DNA of 64,000 nucleotides from a virus (IMGVR_UViG_3300033067_001119:10453-74452), one strand, 5' to 3'. Positions 17,641 to 53,221 are shown, numbered from the stretch's first letter. Translations and numbers: made by a program. Notes: a model not told the origin generated them from the letters alone.

Positions 17641-17915
17641 TTTGCCCTCGCGATCTTGTCGCTGTTGCGCTTTTGAGCCGTGAGGTTCACGCCGCCAACA
17701 TCAGGACGAACAGTCACCACGGTGTTTCCGCTGATCTCGAAGCGGACGCCCTCCGAGCGGAGCGTGACAGCCCCGTAGGCTGCTGGCCATGCACACAGAT
17801 CAGCGATGTGGCTGCGGACGATCTCGACGTTGAGGCCCATGGCCCGTTCCATGTAGCGCAAAACGGCGTGGTCGCTTACTCGAACAGGCTCCTTGGAAAG
17901 TGATGCAATCTTCAT
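17628..17915 (-). CDS. hypothetical protein (SDHAVLRYMER motif)
   Basis: 95-aa ORF after GGAGG. Confidence 0.55.
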   Translation of the reverse strand: MKIASLSKEPVRVSDHAVLRYMERAMGLNVEIVRSHIADLCAWPAAYGAVTLRSEGVRFEISGNTVVTVRPDVGGVNLTAQKRNSDKIARAKCSS

Positions 17916-40375: not shown

Positions 40376-40983
40376 GCATGGAGATCATCGACTGCGAGCA
40401 GGGCTCGGAGGAGTGGTTCCGAGCCCGCATGGGCCTCCCCACAGCTAGTCAGTTCGCCACGGTAATGGCGCGCGGCAAAGGCGGCGGCGAGAGCCTCACG
40501 CGCCGCAAATACATGCTGCAGCTGGCTGGTGAAATCCTCACCGGCGAGCCGATGGAGAGCTACAGCAACGCCCATATGGAGCGCGGCAAGGAGATGGAGG
40601 AGCAGGCGCGCAACCTGTACTCCTTCCAGACCAACTACGATCTCCAGCGGGTGGGCTTCATCCGCAATGGCAAGAAGGGATGCAGTCCCGATGCTCTTGT
40701 CGCAGCCAACGGCATGGTGGAGATCAAGACCACGCTGCCGCACCTGCTGATTGACATTTTTCTACGCGGGGAATTTCCACCCGAGCATAGACACCAGTGT
40801 CAAGGAGGGCTATGGATAGCCGAAAGAGAGTGGATCGACATAGCAATCTTTTGGCCAAAGATGCCGCTCTACACCCAAAGAATCCACCGAGACGAGGTTT
40901 TCATCTCAGCGTTGGCCGTGGCGGTAGATGAGTTCAACGACGAGTTGGCCGACGTAGTTCAGAGGATGCGGAGCCATGGCTAG
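40372..40983 (+). CDS. YqaJ/lambda-exonuclease family nuclease
   Basis: EQGSEEWFRARMG.PTAS, HMERGKEME, GCSPDAL, VEIK, QCQGGLW. Confidence 0.9.
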   Translation: MSMEIIDCEQGSEEWFRARMGLPTASQFATVMARGKGGGESLTRRKYMLQLAGEILTGEPMESYSNAHMERGKEMEEQARNLYSFQTNYDLQRVGFIRNGKKGCSPDALVAANGMVEIKTTLPHLLIDIFLRGEFPPEHRHQCQGGLWIAEREWIDIAIFWPKMPLYTQRIHRDEVFISALAVAVDEFNDELADVVQRMRSHG

Positions 40984-41557
40984 ATCGTGTTCAGTTACCG
41001 ACTGCGAAGGAGCCTACGAAGCTAAGGGCTTTTGCGCCAAACACTACAAGCGATGGAAGCAGCACGGGGACCCAAGCCTCACCTTGATAAAATCCACCCC
41101 CCGTGGGGCACCGATGGCTTTCATAGAGAGGTGCTTAACACACGAAGGGAATGACTGTCTTGTTTGGCCATTCAATCGATGTGGGCGCAGTGGCATTCCG
41201 CAAATAACGATTAGTCGAACCACACGAAGCCCCGCTCGCATTATCTGTGAGAAAGTTTATGGACCTCCACCGACACCCAAGCACGAGGCCGCGCATAGCT
41301 GCGGGAACAGCCACCTCGGATGCGTCAACCGTAACCACATCCGCTGGGCCACCCACGCCGAAAATGAGATGGACAAACGGAAGCACGGCACCGCTCCCAT
41401 CGGGGAAGCTCACGGCATGGCTAAAATAACCGACGAGATTGCTCTGGAGATTATCCATTCAAAAGAAAGCCTCACCAAAGTCAGCGCTAGATTCGGGATC
41501 AGCTATGGCACCGCTGGGAAAATTCGCCGCCGCGAAAAATGGAAACATCTAGGATGA
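40976..41557 (+). CDS. HNH homing endonuclease
   Basis: CSVTDC...FCAKHY; EAAHSCGN..LGCVNRNHIRWATHAEN; lower GC. Confidence 0.85.
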   Translation: MARSCSVTDCEGAYEAKGFCAKHYKRWKQHGDPSLTLIKSTPRGAPMAFIERCLTHEGNDCLVWPFNRCGRSGIPQITISRTTRSPARIICEKVYGPPPTPKHEAAHSCGNSHLGCVNRNHIRWATHAENEMDKRKHGTAPIGEAHGMAKITDEIALEIIHSKESLTKVSARFGISYGTAGKIRRREKWKHLG

Positions 41558-44162: not shown

Positions 44163-44237
44163 TGGCGCTGCATGGGAGAATTGAACTCCCGTTCTCCGCG
44201 TGAGAGGCGGGCATCCTGACCACTAGACGAATGCAGC
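44163..44237 (-). tRNA. tRNA-Glu(CTC)
   Basis: Loop CT-CTC-AC. Confidence 0.9.
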
Positions 44238-44242
44238 ATGAT

Positions 44243-44317
44243 TGGCTCTGCTCCGAGGAATCGAACCTCGCTCGCATGCGTTAACAGCGCAGCCGCACAC
44301 CTTGTGCGTTGAGCAGA
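44243..44317 (-). tRNA. tRNA-Asn(GTT)
   Basis: Loop CT-GTT-AA; G73. Confidence 0.9.
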
Positions 44318-45385: not shown

Positions 45386-45474
45386 TGGTGGAAGCGGCGG
45401 GCTGGGTGAGCCCGCTAATCACTCTGTTATGAGCAGAGGGTCTCCGCTTTTCGACTTCACTTCCCTCTGACGTT
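45386..45474 (-). tRNA. tRNA-Met or Ile2 (CAT), overlapped by the GIY-YIG 3' end
   Basis: Acceptor GGAAGTG/CGCTTCC-A-CCA, loop CT-CAT-AA, aberrant T-arm. Confidence 0.7.
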
Positions 45475-45952
45475 GCCACTGCAGGATCGCGGCTTGGCGC
45501 AGTCTCTCCCTATGCTCCGGCGATTTGGTGCGCCCCTTGTGGGCTAGGCCACCCTTTCGCCCGTTCTCACGAAGCTGCTCTTTGGCAAGAGAAAATATCC
45601 CAGTTCCACGATCTCGATTTGCGACCCCGCCCCGGCTTTGACTTTTGGACGCGAATGCGCCCTTGCGGGCGTTCTCCGCGGTAAATCCACCAACACCACC
45701 GCGACGCATATTGTAGGTGCGCGACACACGGTAATCGGCGGTCAATTCCACTTCTTTTGCGTAAGCCTCAGCACTGGTGTCAAAAACGAACAACACGTCC
45801 TTGCGGAAGGAACGCTTGCCATGCTTCCGGATCGCAGCGCGGATAGCTCGACCACTCCCGAAGTATCCATCATTCGGATTGTCCGTCTTGTGGACACCGA
45901 CGTAGGTCTTGCCGTTGGCCAGATTAGTGATGCGGTAGACGGTGAACATCAC
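45419..45952 (-). CDS. free-standing GIY-YIG (Seg-like) homing endonuclease
   Basis: FTVYRITNLANGKTYVGVH...YFGSG...KHG...AYAKEVEL. Confidence 0.9.
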   Translation of the reverse strand: MMFTVYRITNLANGKTYVGVHKTDNPNDGYFGSGRAIRAAIRKHGKRSFRKDVLFVFDTSAEAYAKEVELTADYRVSRTYNMRRGGVGGFTAENARKGAFASKSQSRGGVANRDRGTGIFSLAKEQLRENGRKGGLAHKGRTKSPEHRERLRQAAILQWQRQREVKSKSGDPLLITE

Positions 45953-46721: not shown

Positions 46722-46796
46722 TGGTGCTCGGAAGCGGCTTGCAACCGCCATGCGAGGCGTACGACGCGGCCTGCCCGCACCTTGCTAAGCCCGAGC
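46722..46796 (-). tRNA. degenerate tRNA-like gene (possible Thr CGT loop)
   Basis: 7-bp acceptor GCTCGGG/TCCGAGC-A-CCA and T-arm intact; anticodon stem poorly paired. Confidence 0.45.
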
Positions 46797-46800
46797 CTGT

Positions 46801-46874
46801 TGGTAGTCCCTGCTGGTTCTGCCCCAGCGTCGCACGGTTATCGGCCGCGCATTCTGCTATTGAACTAAGGGACC
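46801..46874 (-). tRNA. tRNA-Ile(GAT), C33
   Basis: Loop CC-GAT-AA. Confidence 0.85.
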
Positions 46875-46878
46875 GTGA

Positions 46879-46953
46879 TGGTACGCGCTGCAGGTGCTGC
46901 CCCTGCCGCCTCCAGCGTGTCGAGCTGGCGATCTGCTGATGATCTAAGCGCGC
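46879..46953 (-). tRNA. tRNA-Val(GAC), C33
   Basis: Loop TC-GAC-AC. Confidence 0.85.
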
Positions 46954-46958
46954 ATGAA

Positions 46959-47032
46959 TGGTAGTCCCTGACGGTACCTCCCCGCCTTCACCAGCGTGTA
47001 AAACTGGCGCATCAATTTAATGCTTAGGGACC
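46959..47032 (-). tRNA. tRNA-Val(TAC)
   Basis: Loop TT-TAC-AC. Confidence 0.8.
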
Positions 47033-47033
47033 A

Positions 47034-47192: not shown

Positions 47193-47269
47193 TGGAGCCC
47201 GGCCGGGGTTACGATCCCCGTCCTCGCCCTTACCGGGGGCGTGTGCTGGCCATTGATCACTAGCCGGGC
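47193..47269 (-). tRNA. tRNA-Thr(GGT), C33
   Basis: Loop CC-GGT-AA. Confidence 0.85.
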
Positions 47270-47350
47270 ATGTAGGCGGGAGCGTCCTAACCAACTAGAC
47301 GAACAGGCCTGACGGCCCGTGGTGGATTCGAACCACCGTTTCTCCCTGCT
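47270..47350 (-). ncRNA. circularly permuted tRNA-like gene (3' half precedes 5' half)
   Basis: AGCA-GGGAG-AAAC-GGTGG-TTCGAAT-CCACC-ACGGGCC-GTCA-GGCCTGT-TC-GTCT-AGTTGGTTA-GGAC-G-CTCCC-GCCTACAT. Confidence 0.75.
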
Positions 47351-47425
47351 TGGAGCCCATGCCGATGCTCGAACTCGGCTCTCACCCTTACAAGGGGCGC
47401 GCGTCGCCATCTACGCTTCATGGGC
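47351..47425 (-). tRNA. tRNA-Thr(TGT)
   Basis: Loop CT-TGT-AA. Confidence 0.9.
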
Positions 47426-50218: not shown

Positions 50219-53200
50219 CTAGGGACGCTGCTGTTCCTCGTCGGCGCGTGTTGGGCTGGGGCCCTGAAGTCGTCGCACCGTATTCCCAAGGATCGACTGG
50301 TTGCGCATCAGGTACGACGGGAGGGGAGCCTTTGGCGGCAGTAGCCGCGGGGCCTCGTCCTCCAGATTATCCAGAGACCGGCCGACCTTCTTTGCGTTGC
50401 GCATTTCGGTGAAGCGTTCGCCGCCCTTCTCCAGAAGATGCTTGACGCCGATGCCAGCAAAGCCACCTTCGGCACCGCCGGTAAGGATTGAACCGATGCT
50501 GGCCATGATGGCGGCGCCGTACTTGCGCAGTGCCCCCATAATCGCTGGCGTCGTGTCCGAGTTTGTGCGGGCGTATTTCGGGATGATGGTGAGGCGTAGC
50601 GCCTTTGCGTAGCGGTCCATCATGGCGCGCTGCTCTTCCGTGTAGAGAGCCTTGGCGACCGACGCGCCCTTGCCATGCAGCAGCTCGCTGATGTTGTTGA
50701 CGACGGCCTGCTGCCCCTTCCCCGAGCGGCCCTCGGTATTTGCAATCGTCTTCTGCCAGACACCCTGACGAACCGCAGCCATCGCTGGGCTGCCAGAGCC
50801 TGTCACGCGCTCGATGGCTGTAATCATGCGCGCCACGTTGCCCGGATTACCGCCACCGATGGCATTGAAAACGACGCTGGAGACTTCCTCCGGAGTAGCG
50901 GTGCCTTCGACAATGCGACGGAAGGTCGCCTGCTGGCCACCGCCGATGCCCTGCCCGCCAAACGCGCTGTCAAACATCTGTTGGGCCTGCTCGGCATCGC
51001 GCGTCGCCGGGTGAGACGCAATCGACCTCTCCAGATCGCGGATGCCCTGCGCGTGAGAGCGCATCGCGGCCCGCTCCTGTGGAGTAAACATGCGCTGCGC
51101 CAGCGAGGAGCCAACGAAATCCAAGATGCCCTGAGCCGACTTTGCCGGGTCAATCTCTCCGGCGGAGTTCCGCGCCTGAGATGCCTTCTGCCACATCGCC
51201 TGCCGGATGGCGCTCCAGCCATCCGAATCAGCACCCAGCACCTGCTCCAGCCGGTCGGCAAGACGTACCGGGGTGCCGGAGTTGCCGATCTTGCCGGTGC
51301 CGATGATCATGTTGGCGATTTCTTCCGGCGTTGCGTTGCGCTCGGTGATGCGCCGCATGGCGGTGCCCACGTCGTCCCCAGCGCCCCGTGGGGTGAAGGT
51401 CTGACGATAGCGCGCATAGGATGCCCTCGCCTCCTGCAACGCAGCCAGTGCCCTTGGATCGCCCGAGAAAAGGCCCTCTGTGATGGCTCGCTCGATCTGG
51501 GCGTCGAAGGCATCCATGATGCCCTGCATGGCGCGGGCGTCGGTCGCTCCGTTGGGTCCCGAGGCGCGGGCAGCCTGATAGTAAGCCACCAGCTTCTTGC
51601 GCATCTGGTCGACACCCTTGAGACTCACAGCGGTGACTTCGGCCGGGTCCGGAGCTGCGCGCGGATCGGCGCGGTTCTGGATGCGCGGAGCCGACATCTG
51701 GTCGAGGTCGCGGATTGCTCGCGATGCCACCGGCGTCAGCTGGTCGTCGATGATGATCGGATTTTCGCGCAGCGTCAGATCGTTCTGGACGCGGTTTCCC
51801 ATACCGCGCACGGCATCGACCCTGAACTCGCCGGGGAGGCGACCGAACTCATCGTAGCGGGAGCGAAATTCTCCGCGGTTTGCTGCGGCTGCATCTCGCA
51901 CGTTCTGGCCGACGACCTCGCCCATCTCGCGCGGGTTCTCGATAGGCTGAGCCGGGCCACGCACCGCCTCATTGATGGCGCGACCTTGGTCTGCGACCAT
52001 CCCGCGCTGAGCTTCGGCTTCAGTATTGGAGCGATGCAAAACACGATCTACGATGGTCTTCGCCTGCTGAAGACGATCACCCATCTCCCCCGTGATGGCA
52101 GAGGCAGCCTCGTTGGGATCGCTGACAGGGTGCGCTCCGCCCAAGCCGGTGCCAATCTCTCGCCCGGCTTCCTGAGTCCTTCCGTACTGGTCATCGAAGA
52201 ACGTGGCCGCCTTGTCCTGCGCTGGCTTGCCATACGCGCCGCGCGCCGACAGGTCTTCGTACCGGATCGCATCCAAATCCTGCGTGGCCTGCCCCTTGGA
52301 CAGTGGAATTTTGAACTCAGCCGCCACATCCTTGTTGGCAGCTACTTCCGGCGGAATAGGCGGCCGGACAGGCAGCGCACGAGGCACCGCAAACAGGCCG
52401 CCTCCGGGCGCGCCGGGCGTCATGAATTGAACCGCCCGCATCGCATCCGGACCGCCACGTCCGAGGGCGGCATCGTATTCTTTCTGGCTCCCCGCCTCGC
52501 GGGCAGCTACGGCATCATGCGAGCTGTCAACAGCGCCCTTGATGCCCTGCCACGCCTCTTTCGCCATCCATAGCGGGCCGCCCGGCGTTGCCTTCTCCCA
52601 CATGTTTGAGATGCGGTCGCTCCACGTCTTCTTCGGAGCCTCGGCAGGAGCATCATCCCATTTCACGCCACCAGCATCGGCGGCGTCATCATCCCACTTC
52701 ACCCGGCCGCCCTCGGCGCGGTTCTTCACCGGCACCGTGGTGTCTTCCTCGCGCAGCCAGCGCTTGAACTGAGGGATGTCCATCTCGGTCATGTGCCCAA
52801 TGCGGTCACGGCCACGACCATCAGAGAAAGCTGCGTGGTAGGCTGCCTCGGCCTGCGCCTTGCTGCCAAATCCGAGGAAGCACTTGTGCTCGTCGAAGCC
52901 GCCGGTGTGAAGATCGTTCTGGTCGATCACGAAGACCTTCGGGCTCTTCAGGTGAGGCCCGAGATAGACGTCGACGTGCGCACCATCTCCGCCGGTCGTG
53001 TTGCGGATGTAGCCGTAGTGGTGCGGGAGCCGGGATTTCCACGCCTTGCCGGTGCGCGCATCCTTGCCGCTACGATACGAGCCACGCGGGTTCTCGATGG
53101 AGATGTCGAGCCCGTGAACCCTGATGTGGCCCTTCCTGTAGTTGCCCGCGCGCTTCTGTCCGTCGCTCGGGTTGCGATTGACGGCACTGGCCTGCTCGGC

Positions 53201-53221
53201 GATTTGAGCGGAGAGGCTCAC
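50219..53221 (-). CDS. large ejection/polyvalent protein with N-terminal inorganic-pyrophosphatase-like domain
   Basis: GNYRKGH...ISIENP.GSYRSG...HYGYI..T.G.DG.HVDVYLG...FDEHKCFLGF, then RAEGG and a long helical region. Confidence 0.75.
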   Translation of the reverse strand: MSLSAQIAEQASAVNRNPSDGQKRAGNYRKGHIRVHGLDISIENPRGSYRSGKDARTGKAWKSRLPHHYGYIRNTTGGDGAHVDVYLGPHLKSPKVFVIDQNDLHTGGFDEHKCFLGFGSKAQAEAAYHAAFSDGRGRDRIGHMTEMDIPQFKRWLREEDTTVPVKNRAEGGRVKWDDDAADAGGVKWDDAPAEAPKKTWSDRISNMWEKATPGGPLWMAKEAWQGIKGAVDSSHDAVAAREAGSQKEYDAALGRGGPDAMRAVQFMTPGAPGGGLFAVPRALPVRPPIPPEVAANKDVAAEFKIPLSKGQATQDLDAIRYEDLSARGAYGKPAQDKAATFFDDQYGRTQEAGREIGTGLGGAHPVSDPNEAASAITGEMGDRLQQAKTIVDRVLHRSNTEAEAQRGMVADQGRAINEAVRGPAQPIENPREMGEVVGQNVRDAAAANRGEFRSRYDEFGRLPGEFRVDAVRGMGNRVQNDLTLRENPIIIDDQLTPVASRAIRDLDQMSAPRIQNRADPRAAPDPAEVTAVSLKGVDQMRKKLVAYYQAARASGPNGATDARAMQGIMDAFDAQIERAITEGLFSGDPRALAALQEARASYARYRQTFTPRGAGDDVGTAMRRITERNATPEEIANMIIGTGKIGNSGTPVRLADRLEQVLGADSDGWSAIRQAMWQKASQARNSAGEIDPAKSAQGILDFVGSSLAQRMFTPQERAAMRSHAQGIRDLERSIASHPATRDAEQAQQMFDSAFGGQGIGGGQQATFRRIVEGTATPEEVSSVVFNAIGGGNPGNVARMITAIERVTGSGSPAMAAVRQGVWQKTIANTEGRSGKGQQAVVNNISELLHGKGASVAKALYTEEQRAMMDRYAKALRLTIIPKYARTNSDTTPAIMGALRKYGAAIMASIGSILTGGAEGGFAGIGVKHLLEKGGERFTEMRNAKKVGRSLDNLEDEAPRLLPPKAPLPSYLMRNQSILGNTVRRLQGPSPTRADEEQQRP

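Follow-up and report, generated by a model that had tools for sequence, protein, structure and literature searches.

An 81-base element at positions 47350..47270 on the minus strand of the window (the 64,000-nucleotide stretch of viral DNA analysed) is a real, selected and structured RNA, beyond what chance would give. It is probably a conserved, non-decoding and Ro-independent mimic of the tRNA body that would be freed by the processing of neighbouring tRNAs and would act in trans. It is a minimal, Ro-independent form of the permuted tRNA mimics of the YrlA type, and this minimal form is new.

Structure of the element

The element fills exactly the gap between the genes for tRNA-Thr(UGU) and tRNA-Thr(GGU), as the reading made earlier from the sequence alone (the sequence-only reading) had placed it: from the coordinates assigned to the neighbours by ARAGORN (Table 1), it begins one base past the encoded CCA of tRNA-Thr(UGU) and stops one base before G1 of tRNA-Thr(GGU). 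Read on the minus strand, it runs A GCA GGGAG AAAC GGTGG-TTCGAAT-CCACC ACGGGCC GTCA GGCCTGT and continues as TC GTCT-AGTTGGTTA-GGAC G CTCCC GCCTACAT. The order of the parts is a closing-stem strand, AAAC, the T arm, a 7-bp acceptor-like hairpin with a GUCA loop, the D arm and the other closing-stem strand; the anatomy given earlier, a 3' half, a capped acceptor and a 5' half, is correct to the base.

In RNAfold the minimum free-energy structure and the centroid are the same rotated cloverleaf (-33.9 kcal/mol, z = -3.07), with 3 of 200 shuffled sequences equally stable. Sequence and fold together bear out the 7/7 acceptor pairs with one G-U, the canonical T and D arms and the pairing of CTCCC with GGGAG that had been described. 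Beyond the closing stem, the GC of the 5' AGCA is able to pair with the GC of the 3' tail, with one A bulged. The tRNA tertiary positions can all be found by reading (U8, A14, G15 with C48, G18G19, and T54-psi55-C56 within TTCGAAT), and the C of AAAC can make the 15-48 Levitt pair with G15. The element scores 75.7 bits with covariance model R1 and 66.2 bits (E about 1e-17) with the leave-out model R2, which was built from unrelated examples only, the copies from the window, from the related phage L002 and from L153 being left out. ARAGORN calls no tRNA at 47270-47350, the Rfam tRNA model (RF00005) gives the isolated element only a truncated match of 13.4 bits against a gathering score of 29 bits, and no curated Rfam family calls the element in a search of 6 kb around it.

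Table 1. Parts of the element and its flanking tRNA genes, in window coordinates
Feature	Position	Strand	Basis
Whole element, rotated (permuted) tRNA-like RNA, 81 nt	47270..47350	-	Sequence, MFE fold, models R1 and R2
5' end AGCA, immediately 3' of the tRNA-Thr(UGU) CCA; AGTA in L002	47347..47350	-	Sequence, fold
GGGAG closing-stem strand, equivalent to tRNA positions 39-43	47342..47346	-	Pairs with CTCCC at 47278-47282; helix 1 covaries class-wide
AAAC, equivalent to a 4-nt variable region; kept in L002 and most class members	47338..47341	-	Sequence reading
T arm, GGTGG TTCGAAT CCACC	47321..47337	-	Three compensatory pairs relative to ATGGG/CCCAT in L002; T helix 98.8% paired in the class
Acceptor-like hairpin, ACGGGCC, GUCA loop, GGCCTGT; 7 bp, one G-U, without a free end	47303..47320	-	Sequence, fold
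U8-C9 linker and Glu-type D arm, TC GTCT AGTTGGTTA GGAC	47284..47302	-	Sequence
G26 equivalent and CTCCC closing-stem strand, equivalent to positions 27-31	47278..47283	-	GGACGCTCCCGC identical in L002
3' tail GCCTACAT, also the 5' leader of tRNA-Thr(GGU)	47270..47277	-	GCAATTCAC in L002; beyond GC not conserved
Upstream neighbour tRNA-Thr(UGU), CCA encoded	47351..47425	-	ARAGORN; Rfam tRNA 40.5 bits
Downstream neighbour tRNA-Thr(GGU)	47193..47269	-	ARAGORN

Conservation in a related phage

An orthologue is present at 16625-16713 of L002, a related IMG/VR phage of 70 kb with a syntenic tRNA array and a neighbouring protein that is 64% identical (30-64% for the neighbouring proteins overall). 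It occupies the same site, just upstream of Thr(GGU)-Leu(CAG)-Leu(CAA), and in both phages the element sits between Thr isoacceptors; the relative thus has the same element in the same place instead of the two intact tandem tRNAs that the sequence-only reading had named as telling against it. The orthologue reads A GTA GGGGG AAAC ATGGG-TTCGAAT-CCCAT CTGGAGC C-ACCGGTGCACC, followed by GGTCCAG TC GTCT-AGTGGTTG-GGAC G CTCCC GCAATTCAC. Three T-stem pairs and three acceptor pairs are altered on both strands between the two copies and are compensatory, in what amounts to one comparison since the exact orthologue is found in two genomes only. The acceptor linker is 12 nt in L002 compared with 4 in the window, and the D arm and GGACGCTCCCGC are unchanged. 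The two elements are 82% identical, the surrounding working tRNAs 61-84%, and model R2 gives the orthologue 66.0 bits. Within its own phage the window element is closest to tRNA-Glu(CUC), but the acceptor and the T arm differ and in neither phage is the element a copy of tRNA-Glu; recent copying of the resident tRNA-Glu was accordingly dropped as an explanation.

L002 is the only related phage found to carry this tRNA array. A search of IMG/VR with an exact-junction pattern gave zero matches, a clade-specific degenerate pattern returned the contig of L002 only, and the closer protein relatives found through a 139-aa neighbour protein (contigs L123-L128) have no tRNA array at that place, indicating that the array is lineage-specific and that no further orthologues are available.

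L002 contains a second rotated T/AS/D module at 17653-17806 on the plus strand (R1 40 bits, R2 42.8 bits), which occupies precisely the space between tRNA-Pro(tgg) and tRNA-Met, stands on a long basal stem (TTTCGAG...CTCGAAA and CCGGTG/CACCGG) and has flank motifs in common with the L153 element. A motif search of the window for its counterpart was negative; a GIY-YIG endonuclease ORF is present at that place instead.

The tRNA array and the source genome

The source genome is a 74,452-bp IMG/VR virus record with a GC content of about 62%, rated 100% complete by CheckV and known from a metagenome only. It carries an SU10-type portal, a terminase and ERF and YqaJ recombination genes, with endonuclease ORFs near the tRNA array. 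A cultured-phage collection, searched by megablast with 12 kb and by blastn with 801 nt, yielded generic tRNA matches only and no close relative.

ARAGORN reports 23 tRNAs on the strand of the element in the window, including tRNA-Cys(GCA). It misses four CCA-ending tRNA-like genes at 46722-47033 (minus strand). Three of them resemble genes for Val(TAC), Val(GAC) and Ile(GAT) and have an odd T arm or T loops that are not canonical (GGCAGCA, GGCAGAA); Rfam tRNA calls only one of the four (46804-46874, 42 bits). The tRNA set of the phage is larger and stranger than the 23 calls suggest.

A GIY-YIG (SegE-like) endonuclease ORF lies within the array (45419-45952, minus strand) and an HNH endonuclease ORF near it (40976-41557, plus strand). 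Both are possible homing elements, which could explain the differences between the arrays of the window and L002. A 1000-aa protein encoded at 50219-53221 (minus strand), 64% identical in L002 and found in other relatives too, has an N-terminal inorganic pyrophosphatase domain (InPase, PF18823), which is unusual for what appears to be a block of virion or ejection proteins. Pfam and PHROG scans of 28 window proteins matched recombination, replication, methylase, endonuclease and structural functions and nothing RNA-related, neither near the array nor elsewhere among the 28.

A wider class of rotated modules

A loose pattern (a T loop, then TCGTCTAG within 15-45 nt) matched over 119 contigs of IMG/VR. 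When the 7 nt that follow the T stem are compared with the 7 nt that precede TCGTCTAG, the number of complementary pairs is distributed bimodally: the background peaks at 1-4 pairs, and 24 cases form a separate group at 6-7. A tighter pattern yielded 51 loci in metagenome contigs, 41 of them with at least 6/7 acceptor pairs; acceptor strands swapped between sequences form a mean of 3.0/7 pairs. When 65 distinct sequences are aligned under guidance of the model, 93.9% of cells are paired (64.5% when shuffled), the covariation score is 0.741 (0.190 when shuffled, 0/500 shuffles being as high) and 17 of the 21 pairs show both-sided changes, statistics that are partly conditioned on the query because a canonical T loop and a D arm of the Glu type were built into the search patterns, and because the sequences were aligned by fitting them to the model. 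With the partners slid, 35-54% of cells are paired. In the acceptor-like helix class-wide covariation extends to 7/7 pairs, with 95.9% of cells paired. Compensatory covariation, the lack of which had been put forward as an argument against the element, is thus found both in the comparison with L002 and class-wide. A MAFFT alignment of 24 minimal-class sequences misplaced the 5' acceptor strand; pairs were counted on anchor-defined segments and on the model-guided alignment.

Junctions between ordinary tRNAs, the expected false positives, score at most 36 bits with R2. The tRNA-Asn/tRNA-Glu(ctc) junction of the window (44207-44275, minus strand) gives 36-38 bits with the rotated-module models because the Asn 3' acceptor strand is largely complementary to the Glu 5' acceptor strand, and is probably a dimeric-tRNA false positive of the kind about which Chen et al. 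(PMC4201824) caution. In 185,579 prokaryotic genomes the same pattern matched at five places, three of them true modules, so that the Glu-type subclass is essentially viral. At ten loci Rfam at its gathering thresholds reports tRNAs only, and neither of the two groups into which the modules fall therefore reaches a curated family.

Members of the minimal group have no extra parts, only a 5-bp closing stem and an acceptor helix capped by UUCG- or GNRA-type loops, and usually begin 0-10 nt 3' of a tRNA. As a working class they were defined by the 5-bp closing stem, a capped acceptor helix of 7-8 bp without NCCA, a tRNA at a distance of a few nt and no TROVE gene in the genome. The window element has 5/5 closing-stem pairs, 7/7 acceptor pairs, 4 nt between its closing stem and the end of the upstream tRNA and 8 nt from that stem to the next tRNA, and a TROVE gene is found in none of the four complete or near-complete genomes of this group (those of the window, L002, L115 and L017). 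The handle-bearing group has a V hairpin (GGGTTATC), a long basal stem and NCCA after the 3' acceptor strand, and is often encoded away from tRNAs. A TROVE gene is present in both of its complete jumbo-phage genomes, and these modules look like ordinary phage Y RNAs.

In handle-bearing modules L018, L063, L067, L079, L132, L134, L040, L046 and L062 an encoded N-CCA abuts the 3' acceptor strand and is followed by a short spacer and the 5' strand, and a TROVE protein is encoded in three of the five contigs tested. The N-CCA suggests that RNase P opens these modules to a CCA end, as it does the YrlA RNA of Mycobacterium smegmatis (below). Three metagenome or viral loci (L133, L165 and L092) have daisy-chained modules, in which the series T arm, capped acceptor hairpin, D arm and short hairpin is followed by another T arm and capped acceptor hairpin; successive tRNA-like bodies appear to be joined there via sealed acceptor helices.

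Relationship to YrlA and other tRNA-like RNAs

In the account of Chen et al. (2014; PMC4201824), YrlA (RF02553) is defined by this arm order, by a GNCGAAN0-1G Ro60-binding motif near the 5' end and by a Ro60 (TROVE) gene at most 4 kb away on the same strand as the RNA. These RNAs are presented there as Ro60/Rsr-bound tRNA mimics of bacteria and phages, found in 254 bacteria and 22 phages and sometimes encoded beside tRNAs. They are likened to circularly permuted tRNAs with closed acceptor stems, and the crystal structure is L-shaped (PMC4201824; bioRxiv 10.1101/312249). The sequence-only reading, which knew of no phage example, overlooks these RNAs, since their report from 22 bacteriophages (PMC4201824) means that the rotated topology was already known, phages included.

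YrlA is the best Rfam match of the isolated element, at 20.7 bits against a gathering score of 69; the match covers model positions 30-81 (cmscan), which are the T, acceptor-like (AS) and D hairpins. In the 6-kb Rfam search YrlA gave no match at E <= 1. In both RNAs the variable region, T arm, closed acceptor-like stem-loop and D arm follow in the same order, the flanks form the equivalent of the anticodon stem and the nucleotides of the tRNA tertiary contacts are kept. The element differs from YrlA in its lack of the GNCGAAN0-1G motif, the long basal stem and the V hairpin, in having a Glu-type D arm (GUCU/GGAC, where the YrlA consensus is GCUC/GAGC), and in being wedged base-to-base between two tRNAs. 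Only AGCA lies 5' of the closing stem and only GCCTACAT 3' of it, and neither holds the Ro-binding motif. The TROVE family (PF05731) has no match at E <= 1 in the complete 74,452-bp genome (control searches matched). Three of the four testable features of YrlA membership are thus missing from the element, and the architecture is common to both.

The M. smegmatis YrlA RNA is described as being about 147 nt long, bound by Rsr and encoded beside rsr, and its 7-bp acceptor stem as cut by RNase P in vitro and in vivo, with CCA gained (PMC4201824). The acceptor-like stem of the element has the same length of 7 bp, which is what makes that RNA an RNase P substrate; however, its 4-nt loop and the different linker of L002 argue against a conserved design for cleavage and CCA addition.

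Circularly permuted tRNA genes occur in red and green algae and in some archaea, where a bulge-helix-bulge motif, a splicing endonuclease and a circular intermediate lead to true tRNAs, and these genes retain a proper 7-nt anticodon loop. The element resembles them in that its 3' half lies upstream of its 5' half and its acceptor strands are joined by a short linker, but no bulge-helix-bulge can be drawn from AGCA/GCCTACAT, loop and anticodon are not conserved and the three ligase families searched are absent. The two-piece permuted tmRNA of alpha-proteobacteria and others shares the permuted gene order of a bacterial tRNA-like domain, but tmRNA has a free CCA end, a tag reading frame and pseudoknots and lacks a true D stem. 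It was rejected for the element, which at 81 nt has no coding part or tag; ARAGORN, which detects permuted tmRNA, finds none in the window. Eukaryotic mascRNA/MEN-beta (RF01684) is likewise a non-decoding, tRNA-shaped RNA excised from a longer transcript by tRNA-processing enzymes, the release route proposed here, but is unrelated to the element in sequence, with a normal arm order and an acceptor end that is free and can carry CCA. An attP-type tRNA fragment was dropped as a candidate; both halves co-vary, which is not required of an att site.

Alternative explanations

That the element is a working tRNA is very unlikely. A permuted tRNA gene would have its ends joined in the anticodon loop and its acceptor re-opened to give a decoding tRNA, an outcome proposed in the sequence-only reading that now retains very little probability. 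Processing of the neighbours would leave a 5' phosphate facing a 3' hydroxyl, and the joined 7-nt loop CT-ACA-TA that had been foreseen is indeed reported when ARAGORN is forced to tRNA-Cys(ACA) on the halves joined in silico; the anticodon stem of that product is mismatched, however, and its D stem disturbed. The joined form of L002, with the same faults, would be Val(CAC), so that the anticodon is not conserved. If the natural 5-bp stem is kept instead, the joined loop grows to 12 nt (window) or 13 nt (L002). Across the class the leftover end nucleotides vary in number and sequence. Among the phage's own genes, the T4 Rnl1-type, Rnl2-type and RtcB ligase families (PF09511, PF09414 and PF01139) are absent from the complete genome, in agreement with the earlier statement that no ligase is seen in the window. 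In addition, the array already contains a tRNA-Cys(GCA), A34 in an ACA anticodon would be anomalous, and the bulge-helix-bulge motif is missing. Less probable still is a functionless remnant of rearranged tandem tRNA-Glu genes. The textbook route to circular permutation is tandem duplication followed by loss of both ends, which would yield such an arrangement, and the D arm is of the Glu type. The element is not a copy of the resident tRNA-Glu, whose acceptor and T arm differ, and against decay stand the conservation of the element with compensatory changes in L002, whose neighbouring proteins are only 30-64% identical, a degree of conservation equal to that of working tRNAs, and membership of a covarying class.

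It is also unlikely that the product is an RNA in two pieces. By analogy with M. smegmatis YrlA, RNase P may nick the hairpin 5' of G1, between GUCA and GGCCUGU, after which the upstream piece would be trimmed and given CCA and the nicked complex would be open at both the acceptor and the anticodon ends. The proposal starts from the length of the helix, 7 bp, which is the length measured by RNase P; the element adds a 5-bp T stem, its loop G-UCA is one base off a discriminator and CCA, and the related modules of Ro60-encoding jumbo phages have NCCA directly after the 3' acceptor strand. If the element is such a substrate, the closed form would not be the end product. On the other hand, the loop has only 4 nt and the 12-nt linker of L002 is without a clean CCA; many minimal members have hyperstable UUCG or GNRA tetraloops on 7-8 bp, suggesting selection for a closed end, and a cut in the loop would leave tRNA-Thr(UGU) with a 41-nt structured trailer. 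Comparably improbable is a purely cis-acting element of the polycistronic tRNA transcript, a spacer that guides folding or processing of the neighbours, for example as a site that recruits RNase P or RNase Z or as a barrier to mispairing between the similar Thr isoacceptors, with no role once released. Such a spacer would suit the way in which the element directly abuts tRNAs at both of its ends in the window and L002, its position between Thr isoacceptors in both phages and the start of many class members 0-10 nt after a tRNA. Against it, the flanking tRNAs of other contigs are mutually unrelated (Pro/His, Glu/Val, Pro/Ala), most tightly packed tRNAs of the same array need no spacer, related modules also occur away from tRNAs, and the elbow nucleotides and D- and T-stem sequences are fully conserved, which is more than a spacer needs. 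A true Y RNA, working with host Ro60/Rsr or with a Ro60-like protein of the phage that has diverged beyond the reach of the Pfam TROVE model, is decidedly improbable. It would account for the YrlA topology and best Rfam match, and the related jumbo-phage modules co-occur with TROVE genes; however, the complete genomes of the window phage and L002 and two further complete or near-complete minimal-module genomes have no TROVE match, the YrlA score lies far below its gathering threshold, and the element has neither the Ro-binding motif nor, with only 4 and 8 nt beyond the 5-bp stem, room for a Ro-binding helix.

Proposed release and action

An anticodon-less, acceptor-capped tRNA mimic, the structural part of the other alternative in the sequence-only reading, agrees with all of the structural evidence; a decoy for defence proteins, the rest of that alternative, would be one possible role. 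In the favoured model, a non-decoding mimic acting in trans, the element is a four-way junction. Its T arm is canonical, its acceptor-like helix of 7 bp is closed off by a tetraloop, and a D arm and a 5-bp equivalent of the anticodon stem, made by the element's own 5' and 3' ends, complete it. The zero-nucleotide spacing suggests that it is co-transcribed with the array as part of a polycistronic tRNA operon. Cleavage by RNase P at G1 of tRNA-Thr(GGU) would set its 3' end, and endonucleolytic 3' processing past the CCA of tRNA-Thr(UGU) would set its 5' end, on the assumption that this tRNA can be separated from a structured trailer. An activity of the RNase Z/BN type could carry out endonucleolytic 3' processing after CCA. 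The product would be a tRNA-like, L-shaped RNA of about 70-80 nt, neither aminoacylated nor decoding. It may tie up a factor of the host or phage that recognises the tRNA elbow, the D and T stems or the acceptor/T minihelix; by analogy with the YrlA domain, the conserved elbow and D and T stems would bind such a factor.

The Glu-type D helix (U11-A24, U13-G22 and a 4-nt variable region) is suggestive, though in part imposed by the search patterns. A broader and more tentative possibility is that a separate family of mimics, sealed, anticodon-less and independent of Ro60, is widespread in the tRNA operons of phages; its members would be excised by the host enzymes that process tRNAs and would act in trans on a factor that reads tRNAs. 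In view of their 'augmented D helix' and canonical elbow, that factor could be a defence protein that senses or cleaves tRNAs, GluRS or its regulators, or the processing and modification enzymes themselves.

Implications

Phage tRNA arrays are usually read only as a supply of tRNAs for codon usage or against defence. The element shows that they also carry non-decoding, tRNA-shaped RNAs. Such modules escape tRNA finders, do not reach the thresholds of Rfam and may be taken for tRNA genes that are broken or permuted, which is relevant to annotation. In Y RNAs the tRNA-like domain is thought to recruit an elbow-binding effector to Ro60; the occurrence of the module alone in phages without detectable Ro60 implies that the domain has a function of its own, which is the question posed by YrlA. 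Being small, recurrent in viral and metagenomic contigs and bounded by defined processing sites, the minimal form offers a tractable handle for finding the partner. If sealed mimics of this kind are widespread and act in trans, they would constitute a new class of phage counter-defence or host-takeover RNA.
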